This document shows, in pieces, positions 4,799 to 58,728 of a stretch of DNA of 64,000 nt (position 1 is its first letter; each line of letters opens with the position of its first letter). The notes under the pieces were generated by a model that did not search any database, was not told the DNA's origin, and saw only the letters and a list, made by a program, of their open reading frames with translations. Made by a program: the position numbers and the translations under genes. The stretch is from contig OZ024741.1 in assembly GCA_964016885.1 (NCBI GenBank), forward strand, positions 170,128,001 through 170,192,000, given 5' to 3'. Source of the DNA: Eledone cirrhosa (lineage: Eukaryota).

Positions 4799-6191
4799 AT
4801 ATAGACGAGAGGGCCCAAATTCTGCACTCACACCACTACGCTAAACCCATGGTCTCCAAATACCTGAAACTCAAAAACTCAGCAATGTCCAGTAGTGCTA
4901 TGTTTAATATTCTGATCCCGGACCTGGTACGAGTGATGAAGAACGTGTCCCGCATGTGCGACCCAACAGAAATGGAAGGACACATCCAACACTTTATCAA
5001 CCGCATGCAGTTCTCCGGCTACAACCAAAGAGACAGAATCAGAGTATACAAAGGAGCCAGAGAGAAGTATATACCCTCATAGAACTGGACATGACATGAA
5101 TTTGCCCATTATACAGGAGAAAATCATGGACTAAACATACGACAACCAGATAGGACTAAACATACGACAACCAGAGATACCAGAGTGTCATGTTCGTGGA
5201 CGCTACCCCTAGTGTAGAAAGACCCTGAGAAAGACCCACTTAAAGATTAAAGTGGTAGAAAAGCCAGGAACTACAATACAATCCCTGATCATCAAAACAT
5301 ACCCTTTTAAGAAAACCCACTGTACTAATAGGAAATGTATTATATGTAAAGTAATCCCCCGGATAAACTGTAAAATTAGAAACGTAGTCTATAGCATAAG
5401 ATGTACAGAGGGTACTTGCAGAAACATGACAACAACATACATAGGCGAGACAGCTTGTAGCATAGGTGAAAGATAGACCAACACTGGGGGGCGGGGGACT
5501 AAAAGGACGAAAAAACGGTTATGTACTATACGAACACGCCAGACCATAACATGACGATAACATAGACAACATAGAAATTAGAATAATATCTAAACATAGA
5601 AATGAGCCAGCAGGTAGGCAAATAAGAGAGGCAAGCGAAATAGATCTTAGAAGGCCAAAGCTAAACAGAAAAAATGAATGGAATAACAAAAACACCCAAA
5701 CAAACAATACTGACTTGAGAGAAATATAAATAAATAAATAAATAAATATATACACAAGCACAATAACAACAAACACATATAAACACACACTAGTAAACTA
5801 AGATAGAATACAATATCCAAAACACAGTCACCTAAACGGGAACACACACCAAACACTATACACACACGCAATCACATGCGCAGAGAAGAAGACAAAATAA
5901 GTAAATAAATAAATAAGCAGATAACATAAAGATGGGGTAGATATACAATACAACAGGAGGAACATCTGACGATGCTGCAGATGTCCAACGAAAGAACTTT
6001 GTTAGACTATATATATGTGTTTGTGTCTATATTATATCTGTATTTTTGACCGTTGGTCAGTCAATGGTAAACATTGAGGACCGAATGAATTAACTGATAT
6101 AAAAGATACAGAAGCGAAAACCAACCAAACAGTGAGTGTGTTCTGTTATTAATTCTGGCAATATTATTTCAACAATATGACCCTCCCCAAG

Positions 6192-6196
<5 letters not shown>
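4799..6196 (+). mobile_element. Family A PLE, 5'-truncated degenerate copy
   Basis: Colinear with 12883-14366 ([11 protein letters not shown].., VVYSIRC..YIGET) with indels; ends ccctccccaagtataa. Confidence 0.9.
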
Positions 6197-6256
<60 letters not shown>

Positions 6257-6864: not shown

Positions 6865-6922
6865 ATACCTGATGATATCACCGGATTCATACGGAATCCG
6901 GTCATTGAAATCATCATAGTAT
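6865..6922 (+). ncRNA. Type I hammerhead ribozyme in PLE terminal fragment 6764-6970
   Basis: atac-CTGATGA-..accggattc atacg gaatccggt..-GAAA-tcatca-TA-gtat; relatives at 43473-43852. Confidence 0.75.
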
Positions 6923-10101: not shown

Positions 10102-10451
10102 TGTTATACTTGGGGAGGGTCATATTTGTGTAATATTGCCAGAATTAATAACAGAACACACTCACTGTTTGGTTGGTTTTCGCTTCTCGCTGTCTTTTAT
10201 ATCTGCGATCTAACTTAATCGGTCCTCAATGTTGCCATTGACTGACCGACGGTCAGAAATAATACAGATACAATATAGACACAAACACATATATATAGTT
10301 TACATAATTTACATAAATCTTTCGTTGCACATCTGCAACATCGTCAGTGGTGTTATATTTTTTTCCTCCTGTTGTGTTGTATGTCTACGCCATTTTTTAT
10401 TCAATCTGTCTATATATTTATTTATTTATTTGCTTGTTTGTTTATTTTATT

Positions 10452-13400: not shown

Positions 13401-13845
13401 TGATCAGCAAAACCTACCCTTTTAAGAAAACCCACTGTACCAATATGAAATGTATCATATGTAAGGTGAACCCCCGGATAAACTGTAAAACTAGAAACGT
13501 AGTCTATAGCATAAGATGTACAGAGGGTACTTGCAGAAACATGACAACAACATACATAGGTGAGACAGCTCGTAGCATAGGTGAAAGGATAGACCAACAC
13601 TGGGGGGGGGGGGACTAAAAGGACGAAAAAACGGGTCAGTACTATACGAACATGCTAGAAAACAACATGACGGTAACATAGACAACATAGAAATTAGAAT
13701 AATATCTAAACATAGGAATGACCCAGCAGATAGGCAAATCAGAGAGGCCAGTGAAATAGAAATTAGAAGACCAAAGCTAAACAGAAAGAATGAGTGGAAC
13801 AACAACAACACCCAAACAAACAACACTGACCTAAGAGAAGTATAA
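10452..13845 (+). pseudogene. PLE RT/GIY-YIG polyprotein, 5'-truncated, frameshifted at C7 (12370-12376) and G12 (13602-13613)
   Basis: PTDK.G, RPVC, SMDVVSLYPSI, YTQNEGAAIG, RYVDD (12680-12694), CxxC linker, VVYSIRC..YIGETARSIGERIDQH; Asn-rich insert at about 10950-11430. Confidence 0.92.
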
Positions 13846-14115
13846 ATAAGTAAATAAAATAAAATAAAATAAGATAAATAAATACATACACAAGCACAAT
13901 AACAACAAGCACATAAACACACACTAGTCACCCAACAGACAAAACACTATACACACTAGTCACACAGCACACATAACACTATACACACACGCAAACGCAT
14001 GCGCAAAGAAGACAAAATAAAATAAACAAACAAGCAAATAAATAAATAAATATATAGACAGACTGAATAAAAAATGGCGTAGACATACAACACAACAGGA
14101 GGAAAAAAATATAAC

Positions 14116-14157
14116 ACCACTGACGATGTTGCAGATGTGCAACGAAAGATTTATGTA
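14116..14157 (+). ncRNA. Minimal hammerhead motif of family A pLTR (stem I degenerate)
   Basis: CTGACGA-t-gttgca gatg tgcaac-GAAA-gatt-TA; repeated at about 5966, 10313-10350 (-), 51883 and 54221. Confidence 0.6.
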
Positions 14158-14407
14158 AATTATGTAAACTATATATATGTGTTTGTGTCTATATTGTATC
14201 TGTATTATTTCTGACCGTCGGTCAGTCAATGGCAACATTGAGGACCGATTAAGTTAGATCGCAGATATAAAAGACAGCGAGAAGCGAAAACCAACCAAAC
14301 AGTGAGTGTGTTCTGTTATTAATTCTGGCAATATTACACAAATATGACCCTCCCCAAGTATAACAATATTTGTTTCGACACACGATTTCATATAAAAAAC
14401 CTCGCTA

Positions 14408-14445
<38 letters not shown>

Positions 14446-22289: not shown

Positions 22290-25200
22290 GTTATTACTCT
22301 TTGAGTCTCAGTCATTGATGTTAGTTAACTGGAAAGTTTGTGGAAATGAATATCAAGCCACTACCTCCAGCCTCAGATATTCAGGACGTATCGGAGGGTT
22401 CTTGCTGTTCCCAGCAAGCATGCCTTTTGAAGCGTTCCAAAAAGCGTAAAGGGGCAAATTTTCTTTAACCATCCCTGGAAACTTTTTGAGATAGTCCCTA
22501 GTGCTCCTATGACAATCGGGATCACTTTGACTTCATGGCAGTTCCAGATCCTTTTTACCTCCCACTTTAAGTCCTGGTATCGGTTAATTTTCTCCCTCTC
22601 CTTCTCTTGCACTCTCGTGTCGAATGGGCAGGCCACATCCACAATCAGGCACGATCTTTTTTCTTTATCCACAACCACCAGGTCAGGTCTATTGTGTTCC
22701 AGTTTCTTGTCCGTCTGCATCCTAAAATCCTACAGCACCTTCACCTGATCGTTTTCTATCACCGCCTCTGGCTTATGCTCATACCACTTCTCAGAATGTG
22801 GTAAATTGTTTACTTTGCATAGGTGCCAGTGGATCACCCTGCCCATCACATCATGTCTCCAGCCCTTATAGTGAGTCTGGGCTAGGTGTTTACACTCGGA
22901 TACAATGTGAGCCACAGTCTCCTCTCTCTCTCCACAGATCCTGCACAGTGGACTAGCCTCCTCCTTGTAAATATGGTGTTTCAACCACTTCGTTTTGAGG
23001 GCCTGCTCCTGCGCAGCCATTAACATTCCTTCTGTAGCCTTTTTAAGGTCTCCTCTTTTCAACCAGTTCCATGTCTGTGGATCTCTAAATTCAGTTTTCT
23101 CAAAGAAGGTACTATGAAGGGATTTTTCCTGAAGGCTGCTCTTTCTCCTTGATGTTATTTCCTCCTTGGACATCCCCTGGCCTATTGTCCCCTCCTTCAG
23201 TACAGTTCTGAGCATTGGCTCCTTACTATCAGTCACGTATTTGTGTAGGTTGTTTTTCTCCATCTGAACACAGTCCTCTATGCTGATAAGACCTCTTCCA
23301 CCCTCAGATCTCCTTAAGTAGAGTCTATCGACATCACTCCTCTTGTGGAACATGTTGTAGATAGTCAATAGCTTCCTAGTCTTCCTATCCATTTCTTTCT
23401 GTTCAGCAACATTCCATCTCAGAATTCCCGCACTGTACCTAATAATAGACACAGCTCGGGAATTTACTGCACTTATGGCATTCCTACTGTGCAGATGTGA
23501 TTTAATACGCTCCTTACTCTCCGAATGTATTCAGTTCTTATCAATTCCTTCATTTTTTTGTTCTTGATGTCATCAGCCTCCAGAACGCCCAAATACTTGT
23601 ATCCTTCTTCAGAGTCAATTTCCTTTATCATCTCAGCCGTTGGTACCTGGATTCCGTTACTTCTGCTCAACTTACCCCTCCTCATCACAATGACTCCACA
23701 CTTACTAATACCAAATTGCATACATATATCATTACTGAAAATACGGACAGTGTCAACAAGCACATCCAACTCCTTCTCACTCTTTCCGAAGAGCTTAAGA
23801 TCGTCCATGAAGAGGAGGTGATTGATGGTAAGCCCTCCCTTTCCCAACCTGTATCCTGCACTCACTTATCGCAGTACACTGGTCAGGGGCATCAGGGCAG
23901 GGACAAACAACAGAGGGGACAGACTATCTCCCTGGAAGATACCTCTCTTGATCTTCACGCTTCCCAAGGATTCTCCAGTTGATGTTAACTCTGTTTCCCA
24001 GGACTTCATACTTTTGCCCAACAACTGTCTGATGTTATCTGCCACCTTGAAGATCTCCAGGCTTTTGGTGATCCAAGAATGAGGCCCCATGTCAAATGCC
24101 TTTTTGTAGTCTATCCATCAAATGGCAAGACCAGTGTGTCTCCTCTTGCAATTCCTCATTACCATCTTATCAATAAGTAACTGGTCCTTTGTACCACGTG
24201 ACTTCTTTCGGCATCCTTTCTGTTCGTCCGGTAACAAGTTGTTTGTGTGGAGGTGATGGTAGATTTCCTCAGACATAATGCTTGTCAACAGTTTCCACAT
24301 TACGGACAGGTATGTGATAGGTCTATAGTTGGTAACATCATTACCCTTGAATCGCTCTTTCATTATCAGAACTGTGGTACCTCTTGTCAACCACTCTGGT
24401 ACCTCACCTGACATCAAGCAGTCATTGAACATGGTTGTCAGTTTTGGGTGGAGGGATGTTATGTTTTTAATCCAATACCCCTTCACACCATCTGGGCGTG
24501 GTGATTTCCAGTTGGTTAGTTTTTTGGCCTGCCCCTTAAGAGTTTCAACTGTGATACTCAAATCAGTTTGTTGGTGTGCCTGTTCACTAATCTCCTTCTG
24601 TATTGTCTCAATCCACACTGCCTGGTCATTATGTTTAACATCCTGCTCCCATATTCCTCTCCAGATGTTTTAGTTTGTTCCGCCTCAGGGATCATGTCGT
24701 TGCCTCTTTCTTTCCCTTCAAGCTGTCCAAACAGCATCTTCTGGTTGTTGTCGAACATGCGGTTCTGTCTATACTGGCTGACTCTGTTCTCGTATCGCCT
24801 GATTTTTGCACTCTTTGCTACAATGCGTTGCTTCAGTTCCTCTATGATAATATTTAGCTTTTTCCTCCTAGTTTTGTACTTTATTTCCAGTCTATTTTTA
24901 GTGTCTATGTTTTTTAGTGTCCCATTCAGTAGGGTTTCACGCTTTCCAATGTCATTTCTCATTTCCCTGATTTGACCACTCAGTCGTTTCTTCCACCAAG
25001 GCTCTGCTCTTTCTTGTCTGTTGTTTCCTCTCGCTTTTATACCAAGTAGTTTCCTGACCGTATTTGCTGTTGCTTTGAAGATATTGTTGCACTGGTGAAG
25101 GCTCCTCGCCTCAAGGTATGGGATGACTTTGTTTACCTTAGCTGTTGTTTCTTTTAACTTTTTCCTGTATACAAATCTTAGGTTCATAGGTCTGCCACTA

Positions 25201-25865
25201 TCATTGTTCAATTCATCTACCACTAAGTTTAGGATATCAACCAAATCTTGTCCTAGCCCGTCAGCATTCATCTCCTCAGTGGCCGTATCTCTGTTCCAGG
25301 TATTATTTATTCATAGCATTCAGATCATTGTCTGCTTCTGGTGGTTCCTCCGTTCTCTCGACCTCTTCACCTTCATTTCCCACTGGCTCGTTTGCCTGGC
25401 ATACTCCACTCTCCATCTCTAAGCTAATCTCTCTGCTCAGTTCCTCCAGTTCCAGCTCGCTTATCCACCCATTAGTTCTTATTACCCGAGCCTGCCCGGC
25501 CAATTTTTGTTCATCTAATTTAAATAGACCAATCTCGTTCCAGATGTTATGCATCCGTTTCCTATAGCCTTTCTCCTTGGGGTTACTCTTCAGGTAACAT
25601 TGCATAACAGTTCTATTCAATTCTTTCGTTCAGTTGGTTCTGGTCCCTTTCCTTCTTCTTCTTCCTCCGACACCAGCAGTATTTGGTTGACAGCCAGGTC
25701 CCTGCTGCTGAACAAGGGAGCACCTGTTGGGTGAGAGTCTGTCACATGACATTCTAGTCTCCATTTCACCGTTATTCGAACTGTTTAGGTTCGACATTTA
25801 AACACTCTTATCGAGGATTGGCGAATGTATGGTTACATAACCACCGGTGAATTCATCGTCTCCGG
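22207..25865 (-). mobile_element. Dong/R4-like RLE LINE, near full length, multiply disrupted, 3' end in (TAA)n
   Basis: NYRPITYL, EQKGCR, IFQGDSLSPLLF, LFMDDLKL, CRICGEREETVAHIVSEC, RHD, RPDLVV..IVDVACP. (TAA)n targeting is a known property of Dong elements. Confidence 0.9.
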
Positions 25866-31046: not shown

Positions 31047-34000
31047 ATAGTATTAGTTATACTATTTATGGTTATGTAAATACAAAACCTAATGCAGTTA
31101 TAAGTATTTTACACACACCCTAAATAGTGGTAGGCAGTAATGTATTACTACCTTATTACCAGTAAGTTAAGTAGCTCAATGTAAAAACATCAGATGATTT
31201 ACAGAGCAGTTATATGAAATATAAGAATCAAAGAACTGTTCAAAACATTATTGTACTTACAGCTGTTTCCTCCAAACCGAGGTTTGGATTCTTCGGAGCA
31301 ATTTATTAATGCATGGACAGTTATATGACCTCCTTTTCAGCCGAGAGACATACCGATACATATTCAAACATTGATACATATTCAAACATTGTGGGTCAAC
31401 ATTCATTACAGAATTTAGAATGGCAGTACACACTTCGAGATTACATTTATATTAAGAGGTACAATCAAAAATCAAAAATACAGGTTAAAATACAACATGA
31501 AGATAAGCGGTTATATAGTGCAAATGTTATATGTGTGGCACGCATGTGCGTCTTGTTTATATAGTGTGGCAGAGAGATATGTGTGGTAGAGGCACTTAGG
31601 TAGGTAAACAAGAGTGTTAGGTTGGTAGATCTGGTGGCAAATTCTTTATATGATTGATATAGTCCGTGTGTGGAGAAATGTTATAAGCATTAAAAATTAA
31701 AAATAGTGCAAGCATTAAAAATGTTAAAAGTATTGGAGATGCACAGCGAAGGGATGTCAAGTATTTCATGTACTACTTCGGCATTTTCATGGTCAGGGGA
31801 GTGTATTTTTCGATTATATGCCCCTCACATAATCCACCGACAATCCGATATTGAGCGTTTGACAATCCAGTTAGAGATCGTAGTCTGGTGTTCTTTAGTT
31901 CAATACAGGAGGCTGTTACGTTTCAAGAAACGCCATTGAATACCACCCGGAAGTGTGTGTGTGTGGCTAAGGGGAGTTAATGCATGCGGGGAGGTAACTC
32001 CGGGGTTTCTATACCTAGCTATTAAAATGTGTCACAATATAGACCCTAATTTCTATGGTGATGCGCATCCTCCAAGAAAATTTTTAAAGCATAAAGTGTA
32101 TTAACTATAGAGTAGTTTAATTAAGTTATGCTGAAGGTGATCATATTATTATGGTGGATTAACCCATCGTAAGGTGCCACAAATGGAAATTATAGATGAT
32201 GAGCGAGGATTCTAAATTAATGATCTCTGTGGTTGTAGTCTACTCATAGGACCAGGCGCGGTGATTGCAGGATTGCTTCAGGACCCAATGATCTCTGGTA
32301 AGTTCTGGGTCAACGCTTGCTACATAGGATGTCGAAAGATAATCATCCCCAGGCCGGCCAGAGGTCAATCCGCAGTCCTCGCGACCCCTCTCTGACCGTC
32401 AGATCATCCATATATGTACAACCCGCACGGCAGTTGCAATGCATTCACTCTCTGCGCTCAGCAGCCTGGTCCTACTGCTCAACAGCGTTACTAGATTAAA
32501 TCATTTTTCATCTGTCTAAGGAAGGTGTTTCCTCTGCACAACACTATCCAACCGATCAATTCATGCTCAAATTACCCTTAGAGCGGTGTAGTGCCGTTCA
32601 AGTGGGTGGATGTTGTCACACCTGACGCAGAGGTATAAATGGGTATTCTCCCTGCGAAGGGTTCCAGAGGGATGTCGTTGTTTGTGTTATAATAGATCAG
32701 TTAGTGTTGGGTATGTAGTATAAGGTGTGTCTCTGGTGTTTGATGCTAGATGTGGTGTTAGGTTCCAGTCCGACATTGCTATATATTGGGCTTAAAGTTT
32801 TGGAAGGAATGTCTGAAGCGGTGCTGGCAAGTTGCAAACACCTCAGATTTTTTGTTAAGTAGGTTACGGTTGGAGAAGATAATATTGTGTGTCTCTAGTA
32901 TACAGAGGTTACAAAATTTATTAGGTGGTTTGTACGAGGTCGCGCTGCCTATCACTTCCCATTTGAGTGTGTATGGTTTATTTTTAGTTTTTAGATAGTG
33001 TATGTAGCTAGAAAGTGAGGTGGAGTTTGCTAGGCTGTGCTTTTTGAACGAGTGGATGTGCGAATTATATCTGATTTTGAAGCAGTTAGAAGTGGAGCCT
33101 ACATAGGTTTCTGAAGAGTTGTTAGTCGTGACGGTGCATGAGTATATGATATCCTTGGTTAGGCATTTTTTATCTAAAGGGCAGGTTCTATTAGCTCTAC
33201 AGTTACAATTATCCTGTGCGTTAGTCCGCTGGTTATAATGCCGTGCGGAAGTCTGTGTGGTAGCTATAGGATTTTGGGCGTTCGGGTTGACAACCCTGGT
33301 GTTATTACTTATACTAGTGTTATTTCTATTGTTACTGCCGTTGCTATGGTTGCTTGCTACAGTGGTATTTAGAGGGTTTGCATCCCGTTGTGATTTTGTT
33401 TGTTGGAAGTAAGAACTAATTTTACTATTATTGCTGCTAGCTATGTGGTATGCTAAGTTAGGCGTCGTAGAGTATGAGATTTTAATGGTGTTTTTCTTTA
33501 AGAGGTTGTGGTACTTGTGTCCTAGAGGGAAGTTTTTTATCTAGTAGTGAGAAGAAAGCCCTAGGTATGTTGGTGGAGACATTTAGGTTGAAAGGAGGGT
33601 TGAAAAATGTATTATTTCTTCTTCTATTTTTGCTTTTAGTGTTTGGTGTGTTGCTTCTTCCTAAGGCCCCACAGTAGTTACCATGGTAATGGTTACTTCC
33701 GGTGGCACCCTCCGCTTTGGTGTACTTGTGGTTGCTATTCCTATTATTAGGTTTCCTCATGGACATGTTGTGCGAGATGATGTTGTAGCTATGTGTTTTC
33801 TTAGGTAGGAACTCAATTTCTATATTATGGCCGGAGCTAGCTAATGCTTGATTGTAATATTGTGAGTTTTTGCTAAATATGTTTGCGTCATAGGACAGAC
33901 TAGAGATTCTATTGGACACCCCCTTAGAGATAGAGTTTAATATTGATCTAGGGTGATTAGACTTGGTATCTACGTAAATAAGTTTCTCGTTAGGCTTATG

Positions 34001-35786
34001 GAAAGGTGTATATATTTTTGAGTCTAGGTATAGTGAGGCGTCTAGGAAGTTAACATTTTTAGTGTTTTTGTCCATGGTGATACTAAGGTTAAAGTTTTTG
34101 AATGTCTTATGCAACTGTTTTCTAGTTCTTTCTATATTAAATTTTTTATATTCTATAAGTAGAAGTGCATCATCGCGGTACAAACCACCGTTGAGGTAAG
34201 GGAGGTCCTTATGGATTTCATTGAGAAGGTATAGGCCGACCAAATCAGTGACCTGCGCCGAGTCACTAGATCCCATGGTTATGTCGAAGTTGTTGTGCGT
34301 ATCCTTGCGTGTCCATAGTTGGTCCTCGAAGGTGATTATGGTTTTACGGGCCGCAAGGATGACATCAACCTGGGCTCTAGTCAGGTCGCTATTGCTCATG
34401 GCCATGATAAGTGCCTTATTTAATAGGATAGGGGAAATAGAGGTGTAGTATGAATTGATATCAAATTGAATACATTTTTTGTTCTTATTATTCTTGATAT
34501 CCTTGAACCATTCAATCACTTCACCCGTATTTCCCCATTGTTTAAGGTGTATCTTGTGTTTAATTTGTGGGATGATTTTATCCAAAATCTTCTTGCTGAT
34601 AATACCAATGTCGGACTTGGAAGGGCAGATAAGTCTTATCGTGGGGTTGCTGATGAAATTCTCCTTATGGTCCTTCAGAGAGAATCTAGGGGGGTTCGGG
34701 GTGAAAGGTTGTGTATGCCTCTGCAGTCCTAGTTTAGACACTATATTATAACCCTCTACATTAATATCTTCTAAGTTTTTCAAGGTGATTTTTTTGTAGC
34801 TTTTATGTAGTTCATTATATATAAACTTTCTATAAGTATTATAATCTAGGCTGTATATGTTATTAGTTTTATCTGCGTGTACAATAATTTTATTACTAGT
34901 TTTGAATCCATTAATAGAGGTGTTAAGTTTGTTTAAGAAGGTGTTGCTTCTAATATGGTGCTTATTGTATTTAATGTTCTTAACTAGTTTAACTAGGTCA
35001 TTTTCAAAGGAGTTAAGTAGTGTGTTATGAGGGGGGCTTTTAAAGGTTTTAAAGCCGAAGGACTCAAAATTGTTAGTATTATTCAAGTTGTTAGATCTGT
35101 TTCTATCATAATGGAATGTCCTCCATCTCACTCTATTGATAAATGAATTTACACTGTTGATCAGCAATTTCTCATATGTATTCCTGGATGGTATTGGCAT
35201 GTTCTTGGTTGACATGGGGAGTTGGTCTTTGATTAGCATATTGGCAATATTATATGTCAGCTCAACGATATGGAGCAGTTAATAGTATTAGTTATACTAT
35301 TTATGGTTATGTAAATACAAAACCTTATGCAGTTATAAGTATTTTACACACACCCTAAATAGTGGCAGGCAGTAATGTATTACTACCTTATTACCAGTAA
35401 GTTAAGTAGCTCAATGTAAAAACATCAGATGATTTACAGAGCAGTTATATGAAATATAAGAATCAAAGAACTGTTCAAAACATTATTGTGCTTACAGCTG
35501 TTTCCTCCAAACCGAGGTTTGGATTCTTCGGAGCAATTTATTAATGCATGGACAGTTATATGACCTCCTTTTCAGCCGAGAGACATACCGAAAAGGAGGT
35601 CATATAACTGGAGACATACTGAAAACTGGAGACATACTGAAAACTGGAGACTACTGAAAAGGAGGTCATATAACTGTCCATGCATTAATAAATTGCTCCG
35701 AAGAATCCAAACCTCGGTTTGGAGGAAACAGCTGTAAGCACAATAATGTTTTGAACAGTTCTTTGATTCTTATATTTCATATTTCA
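31047..35786 (-). mobile_element. Full-length Naiad-like PLE copy 1: direct pLTRs (35282-35590 / 31047-31355) plus inverted arm 35655-35786
   Basis: Highly similar to 46001-50614; three HHR copies; (TA)8 flanks. Confidence 0.93.
32779..35239 (-). pseudogene. Naiad-like RT/GIY-YIG ORF with a single +1 frameshift at about 33533-33538
   Basis: 2461 bp versus 2460 bp for the intact copy; A6 versus A5 run in DKNF. Confidence 0.92.
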
Positions 35787-36092: not shown

Positions 36093-36220
36093 AAAAAAAG
36101 AAAAAAAAAATGTTTCCTCCTCATAATCGTCTCTTTCTCCCTGTTTTCATATATATATATATATATCCTAACTCGTGTGCCTCCTCTCCACATTTTATTA
36201 TATATATATATATATATAGA

Positions 36221-37448
36221 GATAATTTAATATATCAACTAACATAATCGCACAGATGCACGCCTATGCCAGCAAATACACAGGTTATGTCATAGTACCT
36301 AGGTGGTTCAATGCAGGAGGATGCAGAACAATAATATAAAAGACGTAAAATAAGAAAATCTTTTTTAAAAAATTTTTTACTTACTTAAATTTTCACTCCA
36401 ACTAATTAGTTTCTGCAATGGGATAAAGACAGTTACGTAATCTAACTGTCGAGAATTCATTGCGTCATCAGGGAGTCTATTCTCAGCTAAGTCTCCAGGC
36501 AATGCGCGGACACTGGCGGCTCATATAAAAATAATAATAATTCGGTAGATGGAACAGCTGGCGAGGACTGAATTCCATGCACTGAAATCCTCACTGCTTC
36601 TAGTCAAATGGCCGATTCTAAAGAATCAATCACGTGACACAGAGGCTAGTCAGAAGGAATGGGATGGTAAGTGGACTGACGCCTACTAGCACCCCCCAAA
36701 AAAAAATTTTTTTAGAAGTGGTTTTGGCAGGTTTGCTCGACAAATCAGTGATTTGGAGATAAATATAGATAATTTAATATATCAACTAACATAAGCGCAC
36801 AGATGCACGCCTATGCCAGCAAATACACAGGTTATGTCATAGTACCTAGGTGGTTCAATGCAGGAGGATGCAGAACAATAATATAAAAGACGTAAAATAA
36901 GAAAATCTTTTTTAAAAAATTTTTTTTAAAAATTTTTTACTTACTTACTTAAATTTTCACTCCATAGGCGTGCATCTGTGCGCTTATGTTAGTTGATATA
37001 TTAAATTATCTATATTTATCTCCAAATCACTGATTTGTCGAGCAAACCTGCCAAAACCACTTCTAAAAATTTTTTTTGGGGGGGGGGTGTTAGTAGGCGT
37101 CAGTCATCTTACCATCCCATTCCTTCTGACTAGCCTCTGTGTCACGTGATTGATTCTTTAGAATCGGCCATTTGACTAGAAGCAGTGAGGATTTCAGTGC
37201 ATGGAATTCAGTCCTCGCCAGCTGTTCCATCTACCGAATTATTATTATTTTTATATGAGCCGCCAGTGTCCGTGCATTGCCTGGAGACTTAGCTGAGAAT
37301 AGACTCCCTGATGACGCAATGAATTCTCGACAGTTAGATTACGTAACTGTCTTTATACCATTGCAGAAACTAATTAGTTGGAGTGAAAATTTAAGTAAGT
37401 AAAAAATTAAAAAAAAAATTTTTTTAAAAAAGATTTTCTTATTTTACG

Positions 37449-37454
<6 letters not shown>
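36221..37454. mobile_element. Family C retrozyme-like element: 1.35 tandem ~550-bp units (minus) plus inverted arm 36965-37454
   Basis: 36221 repeats at 36768; no ORF; HHR in each complete unit; (TA)n flanks. Confidence 0.85.
37303..37384 (+). ncRNA. Type I hammerhead ribozyme, family C (also 36395-36476 minus, 44164-44242 plus, 57341-57420 minus)
   Basis: actcc-CTGATGA-c-gcaatg..cattgc-a-GAAA-ctaattag-TT-ggagt; stem II covaries between copies. Confidence 0.88.
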
Positions 37455-37513
<59 letters not shown>

Positions 37514-43369: not shown

Positions 43370-43852
43370 TTTTATTTAGGTTTGTTGGTTCAACACTGGA
43401 TAGAACTGGTCATTCCATATGGTCAATCTCGATGTTTGTGTAGTTTGTGGTGCGAGTACGGAGTTAATTATTATAAGATAACAGGAGGCTGGACTGGTGT
43501 TAATCCTTGAAAGGTTTATTATACCATGATCACCTCAATGACCGGATTCAGTATGAATCCGGTGATATCGTCAGGTATTCAAAATATAACAAAGGAATAT
43601 AACAGATAAAATCCATGGAGCTGAAAATCAGAGACAACAGGACGACCGACCAACTAGCAGCTTCTACCTCAGTCGGTCGTCCACTTGTCTCTGATTTTCA
43701 GCCCCATGGATTTTATCTGTTATATTCCATTGTTATATTTTGAATACCTGATGATATCACCGGATCCATATTGAACCCGGTCATTGAGCTGATCATGGTA
43801 TGATAAACCTTTCAAGGATTTACACCAGTCCAGCCTCCTGTTATCTTATAAT
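43370..43852. mobile_element. PLE pLTR fold-back (arms 43471-43650 / 43672-43851, tail 43370-43470) with decayed HHR
   Basis: Reverse-complement arms; homologous to 6820-6965. Confidence 0.8.
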
Positions 43853-43864
43853 ATATATACATAT

Positions 43865-44289
43865 GTCGGTAGATATATTAATTCTTTACAATTATCTCAA
43901 AATTATTTGTTGAGCAAAATTTGACGAAATTACTACTGTGACTGATAGTAGTGGCTAGGCTCTGTCTTAATAGCACCCCCACTCCAAGCTGGTTAACCTC
44001 AGTGTCACGTGATTGATTCTTTTGAATTTGCCACTTGACCAAGAAGGCAGTGAATTTTTGAATGACTTGGAATCTAGTCCCGCTCGCTTTTTTCCATCCA
44101 CTGAATTATTTTTATATAAGTTGCCAGTGTCCCCGCATTGCCTGGAAGCTTAGCCGAGAATAGACTCCCTGATGACGTAAGGCTTCTCTATAGTTATTAC
44201 GTAACTATATTTATCCCCTTACAGAAACTAATTAGTTGGAGTGAAATTTTAGTAAGTAAGTCAATTTTCATAACTTTCTTATTTACGTC

Positions 44290-44294
<5 letters not shown>
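43865..44294 (+). mobile_element. Family C diverged copy
   Basis: Colinear with 36990-37454. Confidence 0.8.
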
Positions 44295-44347
<53 letters not shown>

Positions 44348-44538: not shown

Positions 44539-44560
44539 ATATATATATATATATATATAT

Positions 44561-45186
44561 GTTGTTATACTTTGGGAGGGTCATGTTGCCAATAAGAAAC
44601 ACACGCACCAATTGCTTTCACTTCAATTTATTATAATAAATTTATAAATTTTGGAAATTATAAATTTCCGGTTGGTTGGTTGGTTCCACAACCAGATGAT
44701 TGTTTATATATTGTCGAAGTTCTTTCGTCACACATTCTGTGACCTCTTCAGTGACTGGGGATTCTTTTCTTTGTTTTTGTGCCTCTCCTTTGTTCTGTCC
44801 TACGCCATCTTGTTTTTGTGTGTGTGTTGTGTGCTTAGAACACATGCGCAAACTAAACACACAACACACACACAAAAACAAGATGGCGTAGGACAGAGCA
44901 AAGGAGAGGCACAAAAACAAAGAAAAGAATCCCCAGTCACTGAAGAGGTCACATAATGTGTGACGAAAGAACTTCGACAATATATAAACAATCATCTGGT
45001 TGTGGAACCAACCAACCGGAAATTTATAAATTCCTAAATTTATAAATTTATTATAATAAATTGAAGTGAAAGTAACTGGTGCGTGTGTTTCTTATTGGCA
45101 ACATGACCCTCCCAAAGTAAAACAACATCGGTTTCAACACACGTTTTCAGATAAAGAATCTTGCTACACAAATTCAGAAACGAAAT
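44561..45186. mobile_element. Family A-related pLTR fold-back (arms 44561-44838 / 44853-45126, tail to 45186) with HHR at 44936-44978
   Basis: gtca-CTGAAGA-g-gtcacataatgtgtgac-GAAA-gaac-TT-cgac; terminus catgaccctcccaaagtaaaacaac. Confidence 0.85.
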
Positions 45187-45862: not shown

Positions 45863-45996
<134 letters not shown>

Positions 45997-46325
45997 TATA
46001 CCAACCTAACACTCTTATTTACCTACCTAAGTGCCTCTACCACACATATCTCTCTGCCACACTATATAAACAAGACGCACATGCGTGCCACACATATAAC
46101 ATTTGCACTATATAACCACTTATCTTCATGTTGTACTTTAACCTATATCTTTGATTTTTGATTGTACCTATTAATATAAATGTAATCTCGAAGTGTGTAC
46201 TGCCACTCTAAATTTTGTAATGAATGTTGACCCACAATGTTTGAATATGTATCAATGTTTGAATATGTATTGGTATGTCTCTCGGCTGAAAGGGAGGTCA
46301 TATAACTGTCCATGCATTAATAAAT

Positions 46326-46372
46326 TGCTCCGAAGAATCCAAACCTCGGTTTGGAGGAAACAGCTGTAAGCA
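46326..46372 (+). ncRNA. Minimal hammerhead with U4C core variant (also 50525-50571, 35694-35740, and minus copies near 31257-31300 and 35489-35535)
   Basis: tgct-CCGAAGA-a-tccaaacc tc ggtttgga-g-GAAA-cagctg-TA-agca. Confidence 0.78.
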
Positions 46373-46621
46373 CAATAATGTTTTGAACAGTTCTTTGATT
46401 CTTATATTTCATATAATTGCTCTGTAAATCATCTGATGTTTTTACATTGAGCTACTTAACTTACTGGTAATAAGGTAGTAATACATTACTGCCTACCACT
46501 ATTTAGGGTGTGTGTAAAATACTTACAACTGCTTAAGGTTTTGTGTTTACATAACCATAAATAGTATAACTAATACTATTAACTGCTCCATATCGTTGAG
46601 CTGACATATAATATTGCCAAT

Positions 46622-49081
46622 ATGCTAATCAAAGACCAACTCCCCATGTCAACCAAGAACATACCAATACCATCCAGGAATACATATGAGAAATTGCTGA
46701 TCAACAGTGTAAATTCATTTATCAATAGAGTGAGATGGAGGACATTCCATTATGATAGAAACAAATCTAACAACTTGAATAATACTAACAATTTTGACTC
46801 CTTCGGCTTTAAAACCTTTAAAAGCCCCCCTCATAACACTCTACTTAACTCCTTTGAAAATGACCTAGTTAAACTAGTTAAGAACATTAAATACAATAAG
46901 CACCATATTAGAAGCAACACCTTCTTAAACAAACTTAACACTTCTATTAGTGGATTCAAAACTAGTAATAAAATTATTGTACACGCAGATAAAACTAATA
47001 ACATATACAGCCTAGATTATATTACTTATAGAAAGTTTATATATAATGAACTACATAAAAGCTACAAAAAAACCACCTTGAAAAACTTAGAAGATATTAA
47101 TGTAGAGGGTTATAATATAGTGTCTAAACTAGGACTACAGAGGCATACACAACCTTTCACTCCGAACCCCCCTAGATTCTCTCTGAAGGACCATAAGGAG
47201 AACTTCATCAGCAACCCCACGATAAGACTTATCTGCCCTTCCAAGTCCGACATTGGTATTATCAGCAAGAAGATTTTGGATAAAATCATCCCACAAATTA
47301 AACACAAGATACACCTTAAACAATGGGGAAATACGGGTGAAGTAATTGAATGGTTTAAGGATATCAAGAATAATAAGAACAAAAAATTTATTCAATTTGA
47401 TATCAATTCATACTACACCTCTATTTCCCCTATCCTATTAAATAAGGCACTTATCATGGCCATGACCAATAGCGACCTGACTAGAGCCCAGGTTGATGTC
47501 ATCCTTGCGGCCCGTAAAACCATAATCACCTTCGAGGACCAACTATGGACACGCAAGGATACGCACAACAACTTCGACATAACCATGGGATCTAGTGACT
47601 CGGCCCAGGTCACTGATTTGGTCGGCCTATACCTCCTCAATGAAATCCATAAAGACCTCCCTTACCTCAACGGTGGTTTGTACCGCGATGATGCACTTCT
47701 ACTCATAGAATATAAAAAATTTAATATAGAAAGAACTAGAAAACAACTGCATAAGACATTCAAAAACTTTAACCTTAGTATCACCATGGACAAAAACACT
47801 AAAAATGTTAACTTCCTAGACGCCACACTATACCTAGACTCAAAAATATATACACCTTTCCATAAGCCTAATGAGAAACTTATTTACGTAGATACCAAGT
47901 CTAATCACCCTAGATCAATATTAAACTCTATCTCTAAGGGGGTGTCCAATAGAATCTCTAGTCTGTCCTATGACGCAAACATATTTAGCAAAAACTCACA
48001 ATATTACAATCAAGCATTAGCTAGCTCCGGCCATAATATAGAAATAGAGTTCCTACCTAAGAAAACACATAGCTACAACATCATCTCGCACAACATGTCC
48101 ATGAGGAAATCTAATAATAGGAATAGCAACCACAAGTACACCAAAGCGGAGGGTGCCACCGGAAGTAACCATTACCATGGAAACTACTGTGAGGCCTTAG
48201 GAGGAAGCAACACACCAAACACTAAAAGCAAAAATAGAAGAAGAAATAATACATTTTTCAACCCTCCTTTCAACCTAAATGTCTCCACCAACATACCTAG
48301 GGCTTTCTTCTCACTACTAGATAAAAACTTCCCTCTAGGACACAAGTACCACAACCTCTTAAACAAAAACACCATTAAAATCTCATACTCTACGACGCCT
48401 AACTTAGCATACCACATAGCTAGCAGCAATAATAGTAAAATTAGTTCTTACTTCCAACAAACAAAATCACAACGGGATGCAAACCCTCTAAATACCACTG
48501 TAGCAAGCAACAATAGCAACGGCAGTAACAATAGAAATAACACTAGTATAAGTAATAACACCAGGGTTGTCAACCTGAACACCCAAAATCCTATATCCAC
48601 CACACAGACTTCCGCATTGCATTATAACCAGCGGACTAACGCACAGAATAATTGTAACTGTAGAGCTAATAGAACCTGCCCTTTAGATAAAAAATGCCTA
48701 ACCAAGGATGTCATATACTCATGCACAGTCACGACTAATAACTCTTCAGAAACCTATGTGGGCTCCACTTCTAACTGCTTCAAAATTAGATATAACTCGC
48801 ACATCCACTCGTTCAAAAAGCACAGCCTAGCCAACTCCACCTCACTTTCTAGCTACATACACTATCTAAAATCTAAAAATAAACCATACACACTCAAATG
48901 GGAAGTGATAGGCAGCGCGACCTCGTACAAACCACCTAATAAATTCTGTAACCTCTGTATACTAGAGACACACAATATTATCTTCTCCAACCGTAACCTA
49001 CTTAACAAAAAATCTGAGGTGTTTGCAACTTGCCAGCACCGCCTCAGACATTCCTTCCAAAACTTTAAGCCCTATATATAG
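46622..49081 (+). CDS. Penelope-like (Naiad-like) reverse transcriptase / GIY-YIG endonuclease, 819 aa, uninterrupted
   Basis: KNIPIPS, ADKTNNIY, LKDHK, RLICPSKSDIG, FDINSYYTSIS, ITMGS, LYRDD, FLD, CNC..CPL..KC, VIYSC..YVGST, CNLC, CQHR. Clade assignment is by resemblance, not by a tree. Confidence 0.93.
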   Translation: MLIKDQLPMSTKNIPIPSRNTYEKLLINSVNSFINRVRWRTFHYDRNKSNNLNNTNNFDSFGFKTFKSPPHNTLLNSFENDLVKLVKNIKYNKHHIRSNTFLNKLNTSISGFKTSNKIIVHADKTNNIYSLDYITYRKFIYNELHKSYKKTTLKNLEDINVEGYNIVSKLGLQRHTQPFTPNPPRFSLKDHKENFISNPTIRLICPSKSDIGIISKKILDKIIPQIKHKIHLKQWGNTGEVIEWFKDIKNNKNKKFIQFDINSYYTSISPILLNKALIMAMTNSDLTRAQVDVILAARKTIITFEDQLWTRKDTHNNFDITMGSSDSAQVTDLVGLYLLNEIHKDLPYLNGGLYRDDALLLIEYKKFNIERTRKQLHKTFKNFNLSITMDKNTKNVNFLDATLYLDSKIYTPFHKPNEKLIYVDTKSNHPRSILNSISKGVSNRISSLSYDANIFSKNSQYYNQALASSGHNIEIEFLPKKTHSYNIISHNMSMRKSNNRNSNHKYTKAEGATGSNHYHGNYCEALGGSNTPNTKSKNRRRNNTFFNPPFNLNVSTNIPRAFFSLLDKNFPLGHKYHNLLNKNTIKISYSTTPNLAYHIASSNNSKISSYFQQTKSQRDANPLNTTVASNNSNGSNNRNNTSISNNTRVVNLNTQNPISTTQTSALHYNQRTNAQNNCNCRANRTCPLDKKCLTKDVIYSCTVTTNNSSETYVGSTSNCFKIRYNSHIHSFKKHSLANSTSLSSYIHYLKSKNKPYTLKWEVIGSATSYKPPNKFCNLCILETHNIIFSNRNLLNKKSEVFATCQHRLRHSFQNFKPYI

Positions 49082-50616
49082 CAATGTCGGACTGGAACCT
49101 AACACCACATCTAGCATCAAACACCAGAGACACACCCTATACTACATACCCAACACTAGCTGATCCATTATAACACAAACAACGACATCCCTCTGGAACC
49201 CTTCGCAGGGAAAATACCCATTTATACCTCTACGGCAGGTGTGACAACATCCACCCACCTGGACGGCACTACACCGCTCTAAGGGTAATTTGAGCATGAA
49301 TTGATCGGTTGGATGGTGTTGGGCAGAGGAAACACCTTCCTTAGACAGATGTAAAATGATTTAATCGAGTAGCGCTGTTGACCAGTAGGACCGGGCTGCT
49401 GAGCGCAGTGAGTGAATGCAATGCAACTGCCGTGCGGGTTGTACGTATATGGATGATCTGGCGGTCAGAGAGGGGTCGCGAGGACTGCGGATTGACCTTT
49501 GGCCTGCCTGGGGACGATTATCTTTCGACATCCAATGTAGCAAGCGATGACCCAGATCTTACCAGAGATCATTGGGTCCTGAAGCAATCCTGCAATCACC
49601 GCGCCTGGTCATATGAGCAGACTACAACCACAGAGATCATTAATTTAGAATCCTCGCTCATCATCTATAATTTCCATTTGTAGCACCTTAAGATGGGTTA
49701 ATCCACCTTAATAATAATATGATCACCTTCAGCATAATTTAGTTAAACTACTCTATAGTTAGTACACTTTATGCTTTAAAAGCCTCTCTTGGAAGGTGCA
49801 CCTCACCATAGAATTTAGGGTCCATATTGGGACACATTTTAATGGCTAGATATAGAAACCCCAGAGTTACCTCCCCGCATGCATTAACTCCCCTTAGCCA
49901 CACACACACTTCCGGTATTCAATGGCGTCTCTCGAAACGTAACAACCTCCTGTATCGAACTAAAGAACACCAGACTACGATCTCTAACTGGATTGTCGTG
50001 GATTATGTGAAAGGCATATAATCGAAATATACACTCCCTTGACCATGAAAATGCCGAAGTACATGAATTACTTGACATCCCTGCGTTGTGCATCTCCAAT
50101 ACTTATAACACTTTTAATACTTGCACTACCTTTAATGCTTATAATATTTCTCCACACACAGACTACATCAATCATATAAAGACTTTGCCACCAGATCTAC
50201 CAACCTAACACTCTTATTTACCTACCTAAGTGCCTCTACCACACATATCTCTCTGCCACACTATATAAACAAGACGCACATGCGTGCCACACATATAACA
50301 TTTGCACTATATAACCACTTATCTTCATGTTGTACTTTAACCTATATCTTTGATTTTTGATTGTACCTATTAATATAAATGTAATCTCGAAGTGTGTACT
50401 GCCACTCTAAATTTTGTAATGAATGTTGACCCACAATGTTTGAATATGTATCAATGTTTGAATATGTATTGGTATGTCTCTCGGCTGAAAGGGAGGTCAT
50501 ATAACTGTCCATGCATTAATAAATTGCTCCGAAGAATCCAAACCTCGGTTTGGAGGAAACAGCTGTAAGCACAATAATGTTTTGAACAGTTCTTTGATTC
50601 TTATATTTCATATACA

Positions 50617-50672
<56 letters not shown>

Positions 50673-50938
50673 CAGGTACACATACATATATGCACGCATC
50701 GGTTTAGCGGGCGCTTATTATAACGCCGCTTTGTTCGTTTGTAAACAAACTGAACAGCCTGAATTTATGCCATACGGTGTTATGTCGTTCCTGTGTCAGT
50801 GTTGAACAAAAAGGTGACGTGGTTGCCTTAACACCGTATGGGATAAATTCAGGCTGTTCAGTTTGTTTAGAAACGAACAAAGCGGCGTTATAATAAGCGC
50901 CCGCTAAACTGATGCGTGCATATATGTATGTGTACCTG

Positions 50939-51013
<75 letters not shown>

Positions 51014-52926: not shown

Positions 52927-54464
52927 CAGAGTATAACTGTAACGATCGACTTCCCTTCCAAACACCCTAACAGTAGACTACCTGTATTAGACACAGAACT
53001 CTGGATTAACACTATAGACGAGAGAGCCCAAATTCTCCACTCACACTATGCTAAACCCATGGCCTCCAAATACCTGATACTCAAAAACTCAGCAATGTCC
53101 AGTAGTGCTAAGTTTAAGATTCTGATCGCAGATTTGGTACGAGTGATGAAGAATGTGTCCCGCATGTGCGACCCAACAGAAATGGAAAGACACATCCAAC
53201 ACTTCATCAACCGCATGCAGTTCTCTGGCTACAACCAAAGAGACAGAGTCAGAGTATACGAAGGAGCCATGGAGAAGTATAAGACCCTCATAGAACTGGA
53301 CATGAAAGGAATTTGCCCATTATACAGGAGCAAATCATGGAATAGCTTACATAGGGCTAGACATAAGATTGGGAAAGCCACCTCATGGTACGACAACCAG
53401 AGATACCAGAGTGTCATGTTTGTGGACGGTACCCCTGGAGGGAAATTAGCTAACCAGTGTAGAAAGGCCCTGAGAAAGACCCACTTAAAAATTAAGGTGG
53501 TAGAAAAGCCAGGAACCACCATAAAATCCCTGATCAGCAAAACCTACCCTTTTAAGAAAACCCACTGTACCAATAGGAAATGTATCATATATAAATAAAC
53601 CCCCGGATAAACTGTAAAACTAGAAACGTAGTCTATAGCATAAGATGTACAGAGGGTACTTGCAGAAACATGACAACAACATACATAGGCGAGACAGCTC
53701 GTAGCATAGGTGAAAGGATAGACCAACACTGGGGGGAACTAAAAGGACGAAAAAACGGGTCAGTACTATACGAACATGCTAGACAACAACATGACGGTGA
53801 CATAGACAACATGGAAATTAGAATAATATCTAAACATAGAAATGACCCAGCAGATAGGCAAATCAGAGAGGCCAGTGAAATAGAAATTAGAAGACCAAGA
53901 CTAAACAGAAAGAATGAATGGAATAACAACAACACCCAAACAAACAACACTGACCTAAGAGAAGTATAAATAAGTAATGAAAATAAAATAAATAAATAAA
54001 TAAATAAATAAATACATACACAAGCACAATAACAACAAGCACATAAATACACACTAGTCACCCATCACACAGCAAACAAAACACTATACACACACGCAAA
54101 CGCATGCGCAAAGAAGACAATATAAAATAAACAAACAAGCAAATAAATAAATAAATATATAGACAGACTGAATAAAAATGGCGTAGGCATACAATACAAC
54201 AGGAGGAAAAGATAGCACCAATGACGATGTTGCAGATGTGCAACGAAAGATTTATGATAAACTATATATATGTGTTTGTGTCTATATTGTATCTGTATTA
54301 TTTTTGACCGTCTGTCAGTCAATGGCAACATTGAGGACCGAGTAAGTTAGGTTACCGATATAAAAGACACAGAAGCGAGAAGCGAAAACCAACCAAACAG
54401 TGAGTGTGTTCTGTTATTAATTCTGGCAAATATTACACAAATATGACCCTCCCCAAGTATAACA
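52926..54464 (+). mobile_element. Family A PLE, 5'-truncated copy (RT thumb + GIY-YIG + pLTR)
   Basis: Near-identical to 12797-14366; ORFs 52888-53598 and 53670-53969. Confidence 0.92.
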
Positions 54465-54521
<57 letters not shown>

Positions 54522-56679: not shown

Positions 56680-56720
<41 letters not shown>

Positions 56721-56724
<4 letters not shown>

Positions 56725-56905
56725 GTATGTATGTGTGTGTGTGTGTGTATTCGTATATAGCCTAATGCACAAGAAAATATTGTTTGTAAATGTTGAATAC
56801 TCAGACATAAAGGCAATATATAATACATAAATAAGAAGAAAGAAAACATAACGTATAGACCAAAACAAGAAACAATATATACTATACATACCCACACACC
56901 AACCC

Positions 56906-56966
<61 letters not shown>

Positions 56967-57212
56967 TATATGGGGGGTACGTGTGTGGGTATGTATAGTA
57001 TATATTGTTTCTTATATTTATATATATATGGGGGGTAGGTGTGTGGGTATGTATAGTATATATTGTTTCTTGTTTTGGTCTATACGTTATGTTTTCTTTC
57101 TTCTTATCTATGTATTATATATTGCCTTTATGTCTGACTATTCAACATTTACAAACAATATTTTCTTGTGCATTAGGCTATATACGAATACCCACACACA
57201 CACACATACATA

Positions 57213-57213
<1 letters not shown>
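56721..57213. repeat. ~190-bp inverted repeat centred on (TA)n, with an extra partial arm at 56971-57013
   Basis: 56721-56908 versus 57029-57213. Confidence 0.9.
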
Positions 57214-57256
<43 letters not shown>

Positions 57257-57257
57257 G

Positions 57258-57290
<33 letters not shown>

Positions 57291-57298
<8 letters not shown>

Positions 57299-58040
57299 CG
57301 TAAAATAAGAAAATTATAAAATTAACTTACTAAAATTTCACTCCCAACTAATTAGTTTCTGAAATGAAATAAATATACTTTCCGAAGAAAACATTGAGAA
57401 GCATTTCGTCGTCAGGGAAGACTATTCTCAGCTAAGTATCCAGGCAAAGCGTGAACTTTGGAAACTTATACAAAAATAATTCAGTGGATAGAAAATAGCA
57501 AAGCGTGGACTGAATTCCTAGCCCCCATTGAGAAAATCACTGCCTCTGCGTCGGTGGGAAATTCAAAAAGAATCAATCACGTGACATCGAGGTCAATCAG
57601 TGGAAAGTGGTTTGTTAATAAGACAGCGGCCTGCCTGCTACCATAGCAGCAGTCTTGGCCAAATTTTTGAATTTGCCACCGACGCAGAGGCAGTGATTTT
57701 CTCAATGGCTAGGAATTCAGTCCACGCTTTGCTATTTCTATCCACTGAATTATTTTTGTATAAGTTTCCAGAGTCCACGCTTTGCCTGGATACTTAGATG
57801 AGAATAGTCTTCCCTAACGACGAAATGCTTTTCTATATTTTCTTCGGAAAGTATATTTATTCCATTTCAGAAACTAATTAGTTGGGAGTGAAATTTTAGT
57901 AAGTAAGTTAATTTTATAATTTTCTTATTTTACGTCTCTCATATTATTGTTCTGCAACCCCATGCATTGAACCACAAAGTTACTAAGACAAAACCTATAT
58001 ATTTGCTAGCATTGATATGCATCTGTATGTATATATATGT
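57291..58040. mobile_element. Family C fold-back, third subfamily
   Basis: Arms about 57291-57567 / 57665-57942, tail to 58040. Confidence 0.85.
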
Positions 58041-58055
58041 TACTAGATATTAATT

Positions 58056-58090
<35 letters not shown>

Positions 58091-58253: not shown

Positions 58254-58387
58254 TCTTTTCACTCGGAGAATATAAAATTCCCGAGTTCAAATTACGAACT
58301 GGCGCTATTCAAAATTGTTCCAGAGATGAGAATGAATGATGTGGAAGCAATTCTGTCCGTATATATATCTATATATATATATGTATG

Positions 58388-58728
58388 TAGAAAAAGAGAT
58401 GAAATCTAAAATGCAACTGGAGTCTTATTTTTTTTAAAAATATATATATTTATTTGGTTCCTTTACCGGTTTCGCAGTTCTTCTGCTTTTCAAAAGGTGA
58501 GTTGAGATGGAGGGTCTGTGGTTTTTCTCCACAGACCCTCCATCTCAACTCACCTTTTGAAAAGCAGAAGAACTGCGAAACCGGTAAAGGAACCAAATAA
58601 ATATATATATTTTAAAAAAAAATAAGGCTCCAGTTGCATTTTCGATTTCATCTCTTTTTCTTTATACTTTCACTCGTGTAGGACACCTCGGTTATTTTTC
58701 ATTTTGTAAAAAAACCCTCACTTTCTAA
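58388..58728. mobile_element. Family E mini fold-back (arms 58388-58520 / 58530-58662, tail to 58728)
   Basis: Reverse-complement arms; HHR in both. Confidence 0.85.
58553..58590 (+). ncRNA. Minimal hammerhead, U3-A8 variant
   Basis: cctt-TTGAAAA-gcag aagaa ctgc-GAAA-ccgg-TA-aagg. Confidence 0.8.

Follow-up and report, generated by a model that had tools for sequence, protein, structure and literature searches.

Organization of the insertion

The window, i.e. the whole stretch of 64,000 nucleotides of Eledone cirrhosa DNA that was analysed, contains, inserted head to head inside a (TA)n tract, copies of a non-coding unit of 564 nt that bears a type I minimal hammerhead ribozyme (HHR) and is referred to here as family C (Table 1). 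Unit positions are counted from the predicted HHR cleavage site. The minus arm begins at 36964/36963 with (t)GGAGTGAAAA, the 2-nt ambiguity at the junction placing its start anywhere from 36964 to 36962. It runs for 564 nt to a second HHR and for about 180 nt more before it stops near 36221 in (TA)n. A preliminary description of this DNA, made from the letters alone, had the arm begin with the predicted cleavage product at 36964 and continue over a full monomer, through the second HHR at 36400 and some 180 nt beyond, and both statements are borne out. Its figure of about 550 nt for the unit is to be corrected to 564 nt for the monomer here, the range being 521-594 nt among the 83 monomers extracted from the family.

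The plus arm (36964-37458) has an HHR of its own, with CUGAUGA at 37308, and also ends in (TA)n. Compared with each other, the arms show 95% agreement across 498 nt, with 5 substitutions and, for the rest, homopolymer gaps. No stop-free frame of at least 120 aa overlaps the insertion in the ORF scan of the window, in agreement with the earlier remark that the unit lacks an ORF. An Rfam search of the insertion returned nothing at gathering scores.

Table 1. Positions of the family C insertion, its parts and related elements in the window (a point marks features given no strand).
Feature	Position	Strand
Left arm, complete monomer of 564 nt bounded by two cleavage sites	36400..36963	-
Left arm, partial second unit, 3' end at site B (unit position ~200-205)	36221..36399	-
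Right (inverted) arm; starts at unit position 149, crosses the HHR and ends at site A (~83)	36964..37458	+
Head-to-head junction with 2-nt microhomology, at the predicted cleavage site of the left arm	36963..36964	.
Tail of ~120 nt from site A to site B; contains two hairpins, one short (unit ~90-110), the other covarying (unit ~147-180)	36763..36880	-
Type I minimal HHR, left arm; GUU^ cleavage predicted between 36400 and 36399	36395..36476	-
Second copy of the HHR, right arm; cleavage predicted between 37379 and 37380	37303..37384	+
(TA)n target flank, left	36199..36220	.
(TA)n target flank, right	37454..37511	.
Older family C copy, 79% alike, single arm ending at site A	43856..44297	+
Older family C copy, 72-76% alike, head-to-head, one A and one B end	57289..58067	.
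Autonomous PLE with Hydra-clade motifs, 820-aa ORF (ATG 46622 to 49081), 4,199-nt unit	45996..50614	+
Inverted relative of the 820-aa PLE	31047-35782	

The predicted hammerhead ribozyme

The HHR of the locus consists of stem I (ACUCC/GGAGU), the core segments CUGAUGA and GAAA, a stem II with a C-A mismatch at its base, and a stem III formed by a 12-nt palindrome, AACUAAUUAGUU. Folding of the 101-nt HHR region gives z = -2.93, and this value, together with the covariation seen across the family, places the ribozyme beyond chance. A pattern search of the 3.0-Gb genome finds 6,553 matches to the intact motif and none to the reversed control. Among 171 distinct sequences, compensatory changes are evident in stem II, where pair 2 is CG in 63, TA in 63, AT in 24 and GC in 14 and pair 5 is TA in 106 and GC in 54; the core and the cleavage-site U were fixed by the search pattern, so that variation at those positions is not informative.

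The PLE minimal HHRs described in PMC4209133 are characterized by an extra base between positions 9 and 10.1, the G10.1-C11.1 pair and a palindromic helix III. All three traits recur in family C, with a C inserted after A9 in 166 of 171 sequences and G-C at the 10.1-11.1 pair in 162 of 171. Minimal HHRs of this kind with a palindromic stem III work as dimers (PMC4209133). An additional A stands ahead of GAAA in 169 of the 171, a base for which no mention was found in the description of PLE minimal HHRs in PMC4209133.

Family C in the genome

Every unit carries a type I HHR with a conserved core, and the units, a few hundred bases long and devoid of ORF and LTR, are arranged head to tail. In terms of its sequence, family C conforms to the metazoan non-LTR retrozymes of PMC7229834. 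The partial tandem, the inverted 5'-truncated copy and the optional 3' tail correspond to the structure of PLEs. A target-site duplication, longer than 4 bp in retrozymes when present, would be masked by the (TA)n flanks. The unit closes head to tail on itself in all 83 extracted monomers, the first 58 of which are 73-99.8% alike, and the youngest copies are about 0.2% apart outside homopolymers. The longest array listed is inverted and comprises about nine units (G000:C1:120075197-120079644). A short ORF running through the HHR was rejected because it is not conserved across subfamilies. A comparison with four contig sets shows pieces of family C in runs coded as three organisms, one of them at a depth of about 3, and was given no weight as evidence.

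The statistics given below are drawn from loci of one contig (C1), taken in genome order and found by two exact patterns. After removal of 20 overlapping loci, within-locus duplicates and single hits shorter than 60 nt, the sample comprises 125 insertions at 120 loci. A DNA search that scored the best 40 of 2,316 candidates was biased to full monomers and was left out of the statistics.

Pairing of the 3' ends

The 3' ends of family C cluster at two sites separated by about 120 nt, namely site A (~83 in the unit, CTTT(T/C)ATAT) and site B (~200-205, ATCTATAT), and 176 of 185 A or B ends in the C1 sample run into a TA or CT tract. Inverted insertions make up 76 of the 125. All 63 intact ones pair an A end with a B end, with no A/A and no B/B case, and 13 more have an interrupted arm; the 49 single arms end at A (20), at B (27) or elsewhere (2). 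For an independent choice of ends, p is about 3e-7 and 1.5e-8 in two samples with sampling bias allowed for, all samples behind the pairing counts being from contig C1. Exact end junctions number 3,882 for A and 925 for B genome-wide, under patterns that differ in strictness. No head-to-head A/A or B/B insertion is found among the first 100 A ends or the first 100 B ends listed.

The tail hairpin between the two sites exhibits compensatory changes in 72 representatives. The two arms of an insertion are close kin, in that no sampled arm is closer than the partner in 25 of the 36 insertions that could be tested, at a median distance of 2.2%, another arm being closer in 11 of the 36. Lengths and start points vary independently between the two arms, each arm passes straight into (TA)n, and the junctions between them mostly overlap by 0-5 nt.

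Several variants of the ends were observed. In some subfamilies (e.g. at L034, L049 and L113) site B reads TTCTCTAT and the end is often lengthened by (CT)n before (TA)n, which suggests slippage during priming. Some B arms stop at or near site A (L046, L052, L037; L383) and are tail-only arms, as classical twin priming would give; an arm of this kind was also seen once in the autonomous PLE described below. Two head-to-head junctions (G000:C7:32262923 and C1210:48497) are joined exactly via the 12-nt palindrome of stem III.

5' ends at the cleavage site

Among 176 position-sampled arms, 2 start at -2..+4 against 2.75 expected. The visible excess occurs at +5..+22, where 26 starts compare with 7.8 expected (p = 8e-8; none of 2,000 scans as extreme), and a smaller one inside the HHR (28 against 16.3 expected at 481-528). 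An exact start at the cleavage site, as at 36963/36964, is unusual, and a single copy proves little.

Over the whole genome, 47 junctions at the cleavage site were matched against 5,417 that read through (0.86%). The rate at a control position is 3 of 2,008 (0.15%; Fisher p = 3e-4), although this position adjoins a stretch of low truncation and the 5.8-fold ratio may be an overstatement. The filter for cleavage junctions is estimated to recover about a third of them. The first 30 of the 47 matches, from 26 insertions, include 8 clear double starts at +1/+2, 2 more that are probable, and 2 that represent indels rather than 5' ends.

A direct pattern yields 13 insertions in which both arms start at the cleavage site, each of them no more than 2 nt from the predicted scissile bond. 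With spacers of 3-30 nt there are 12 matches, one a local duplicate, i.e. about 54-fold fewer per offset pair than the cleavage-site double starts, and the control position for double starts gives 2 matches, none within 4 nt. The 8 clear double-start insertions are all A/B. In 4 of these, an additional complete unit is present in one arm, which suggests a linear template whose 5' end had been cut while an internal HHR had not. Starts at the cleavage site are real but rare. The enrichment of 5' ends at the cleavage site on which the preliminary description made its reading depend is found genome-wide, together with the 13 double starts, and involves a small minority of starts. The double starts are the best, though indirect, sign of cleavage in vivo, being the trace expected of two cDNAs that run off one cut 5' end.

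The neighbouring autonomous PLE

The 820-aa protein of the PLE next to the insertion contains RWR, DKT, CNCRANRTC (CxCX5C), CNLC (CxxC) and CQH (CxH), which agree with the Hydra clade, for which RWK-like, DKT, CxCX5C, CxxC and CxH motifs and a (TA)n target are described (PMC8557442, section 11). Its endonuclease has 100% matches at no fewer than 150 places in the genome, and at many of these the frame is open over its full length. Among 20 loci picked as inverted, 18 of 18 insertions pair an A' with a B' end (+47 and +211) and 2 more are interrupted; the inverted copy in the window shows the same +47/+211 pairing. A young autonomous PLE that follows the same rule and has many intact ORFs lies 8.5 kb away, so that template and enzyme are at hand.

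The HHR of the 820-aa PLE has a CCGAAGA core in place of CUGANGA and a stem III that is palindromic, and its cleavage site is predicted to be GUA. The 3' region of the element is long (~1.5 kb). Common to this PLE and family C are the context of site A (TTTCATATA..TG.TCTG.A), the hairpin after it, and an unpaired base on both sides of stem II in the HHR. The profile similarity between the two is weak (E = 0.024) and falls at the homologous place. The 820-aa PLE, with its two-site rule, is a candidate for the class of mobiliser that would serve family C.

About ten related PLE families, with 31-44% identity, occur among the loci examined. No autonomous copy joined to a family C unit appeared in the 50 of 10,597 GIY-YIG candidates inspected, and in the loci examined no ORF with RT and GIY-YIG lies in or is joined to the unit. 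A partner search by a relaxed tail motif listed almost only family C. Three loci were rejected as partners. Two of them have a PLE end upstream on the same strand, but at L097 the unit has inserted into the terminal TA tract of another PLE family, and at L091 a TA tract lies in between; L122 is a neighbour as well. Pfam gave no family for four PLE proteins of the window and the PDB nothing matching the long PLE ORF, while an Atlas look-up returned GIY-YIG and HTH-bearing clusters that serve as leads only.

Proposed mechanism of integration

Taken together, family C is probably a non-autonomous PLE, i.e. a non-LTR retrozyme, copied by a Hydra-clade PLE protein that primes both cut (TA)n strands at sites A and B of one RNA. 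The sequences themselves display the target, two 3' ends that pair strictly, the close kinship of the arms, the variable 5' truncation, the short junction overlaps, the covariation of the HHR and the rule followed by the Hydra-like PLE. The preliminary view of a retrozyme-like non-coding unit, mobilised in the manner of PLEs and copied from a template longer than one monomer, is supported. It did not include the fixed A/B pairing of the 3' ends or the connection to Hydra-clade PLEs.

The PLE protein would bind the folded tail and cut both strands of the (TA)n tract, presumably as a double-strand cut. One DNA end would be primed at site A and the other at site B via TA microhomology, with one shared RNA serving both arms under strand displacement. 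Both cDNAs would head for the 5' end of the RNA, stop at variable points and then be end-joined. The usual template would be uncleaved at the HHR, as a multimer or a circle, and would give rise to more than one monomer; the rare template would be cut by the ribozyme, and both cDNAs would run off the same 5' end. Arms that overlap call for strand displacement or for a second RNA, and the two leave the same sequence. Against this reading stand the exact partner, which was not found, the weak profile similarity to the 820-aa PLE, the 11 of 36 insertions with a closer non-partner arm, the anole PLE in vitro, with start sites that neither differ between strands nor share homology with the target (PMC11167929), and the origin of all pairing counts from contig C1.

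We would place somewhat less than even weight on a broader reading, in which this PLE lineage integrates by programmed twin priming. Here an RT-endonuclease dimer would use two target-mimicking sites that flank a folded tail, one cut end per site, producing the tail and the inverted pseudo-LTR; the double starts would record HHR self-cleavage in the germline, and family C would be a retrozyme tied to the Hydra clade. In L1 twin priming, a single RNA is primed by both target strands, which yields a head-to-head inversion with microhomology at the joint; the second site is opportunistic and the arms barely overlap. In family C, by contrast, the two sites lie at fixed internal positions and overlap between the arms is unrestricted.

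It is possible, though rather doubtful, that the main template is a circular RNA of about 550 nt, produced by HHR cleavage and ligation, around which the RT rolls, as in the standard retrozyme model and as the preliminary description had considered; such a template is compatible with two-site priming. The great majority of junctions read through the cleavage site (5,417 against 47), tandem arrays reach more than 6 units, circular folds are stable in all six monomers folded (z of -3.2 to -5.8), and the retrozymes of mussel, coral and axolotl form circles (PMC7229834). Moreover, a duplicated locus and a locus that holds two distinct insertions being excluded, neighbouring units or arms within an insertion differ at 183 positions, of which only 44 involve alleles common elsewhere, compared with 70% between loci. 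Differences that are mostly private to an insertion fit a circular and a multimeric template alike, and a homogeneous tandem master would yield the same arrays. A circle, however, has no 5' end, and the additional complete unit in one arm of 4 of the 8 double-start insertions suggests a linear RNA.

Alternatively, the A/B asymmetry might arise from two RNAs on an asymmetric protein dimer, or from a single priming event, after which fold-back or an endonuclease-mediated resolution would supply the tail. This is unlikely in our estimation, since the lengths and starts of the arms are independent, both arms run directly into (TA)n, and shared 5' ends at the cleavage site exceed the neighbouring rate by far, as expected from one template or template class. 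It draws on published proposals that ascribe the tail to EN-mediated resolution (PMC8557442) or invoke self-priming on an antisense template (PMC3846280), and on the predicted dimer of the anole PLE protein (PMC11167929).

The 5' ends at the HHR might also reflect stalling of the RT on folded RNA, or a transcription start, with no self-cleavage involved. The larger excess at +5..+22 and the smaller one within the HHR agree with this, as may the extra base before GAAA; in addition, cleavage in vitro failed for 8 of 9 retrozyme dimers from Xenopus (bioRxiv 10.64898/2026.07.22.740005), and no RNA-seq ends were found at the anole HHR site (PMC11167929). Nevertheless, we regard this origin as improbable in view of the double starts, all 13 of which lie at most 2 nt from the predicted scissile bond, of a control position with 2 matches and none within 4 nt, and of the covariation, by which the fold is kept.

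That the unit is only the pseudo-LTR of an autonomous PLE after heavy 5' truncation, as the preliminary description had considered, is very improbable and does not occur at detectable frequency, because 83 monomers close head to tail and no arm in the loci examined is joined to an ORF or to shared foreign upstream sequence, even though other hammerhead repeats here adjoin PLE endonuclease ends (L293, L289) and the inspected GIY-YIG candidates were 50 of 10,597.

Relation to known systems

A recent preprint argues that non-LTR retrozymes derive from PLEs and are non-autonomous (bioRxiv 10.64898/2026.07.22.740005). Family C resembles metazoan non-LTR retrozymes in being a non-coding, low-GC tandem with one type I HHR per unit and thousands of copies in a genome that contains PLEs (PMC7229834; bioRxiv 10.64898/2026.07.22.740005). 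Its unit is longer than the 150-450 nt of PMC7229834 and lies within the 51-972 nt of bioRxiv 10.64898/2026.07.22.740005. It departs from them in its PLE-type minimal HHR, in its mostly head-to-head arrangement of one or two units in (TA)n and in its fixed, paired 3' ends.

The (TA)n target, the HHR, the partial tandems, the inverted 5'-truncated copy and the one-ended tail are shared with the Hydra-clade EN+ PLEs of PMC8557442. In contrast to these, family C has no ORF, a tail of ~120 nt rather than 30-40 nt, and no contiguous autonomous parent that we could find. Chlamys elements such as MRC1 (PMC8557442, section 10) are likewise non-autonomous PLEs with a pLTR and head-to-tail copies, but their 3' ends are in general similar to those of an autonomous family, and canonical HHRs are lacking in most Chlamys elements (PMC8557442).

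An anole PLE of another clade cuts and extends both strands in vitro, with two internal starts that bound the tail; use of the start sites does not differ between the strands, and they have no homology to the target (PMC11167929). This element, Poseidon of Anolis (PAc), is like family C in the two internal start sites bounding a tail and in the use of uncleaved RNA as the main template. Family C is distinguished from PAc (PMC11167929) by sites that are both TA-rich, target-like and strictly paired, and by an HHR cleavage site that is marked by genomic ends.

One of the inverted pLTRs is already known to carry a tail (PMC3846280; PMC8969392), and the formation of the inverted repeats and tails of PLEs, as well as hammerhead cutting in vivo, are stated to be open (PMC8557442; PMC11167929). 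Family C itself is of a known kind, and the one-ended tail was known qualitatively. With its thousands of protein-free insertions, a strict pairing rule and a base-precise cleavage footprint, it bears on PLE integration and provides, as judged from sequence, unusually clean evidence on its mode. A search of mainly open-access papers returned no report of family C, no paper on a cephalopod retrozyme and no statement of the strict A/B pairing. The main text of an octopus repeat annotation does not mention hammerheads (PMC13282606).

Other repeats in the window

Further short head-to-head inverted elements are located at 758-1103, 43469-43853, 44559-45128, 50602-51008, 56683-57255 and 58383-58667, some of them with other hammerhead-like motifs. 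Hammerhead-like motifs near 6869 and near 865/996 resemble those found beside PLE endonuclease ends elsewhere in the genome (L293, L289). A second PLE family (10279-14441, 4800-6256 and 52927-54476) has RT and GIY-YIG domains, frameshifts and an asparagine-rich insert, and its HHR is a typical minimal one, CUGACGA...GAAAG. Broken RT frames of a non-LTR retrotransposon lie on the minus strand at 22730-25310.
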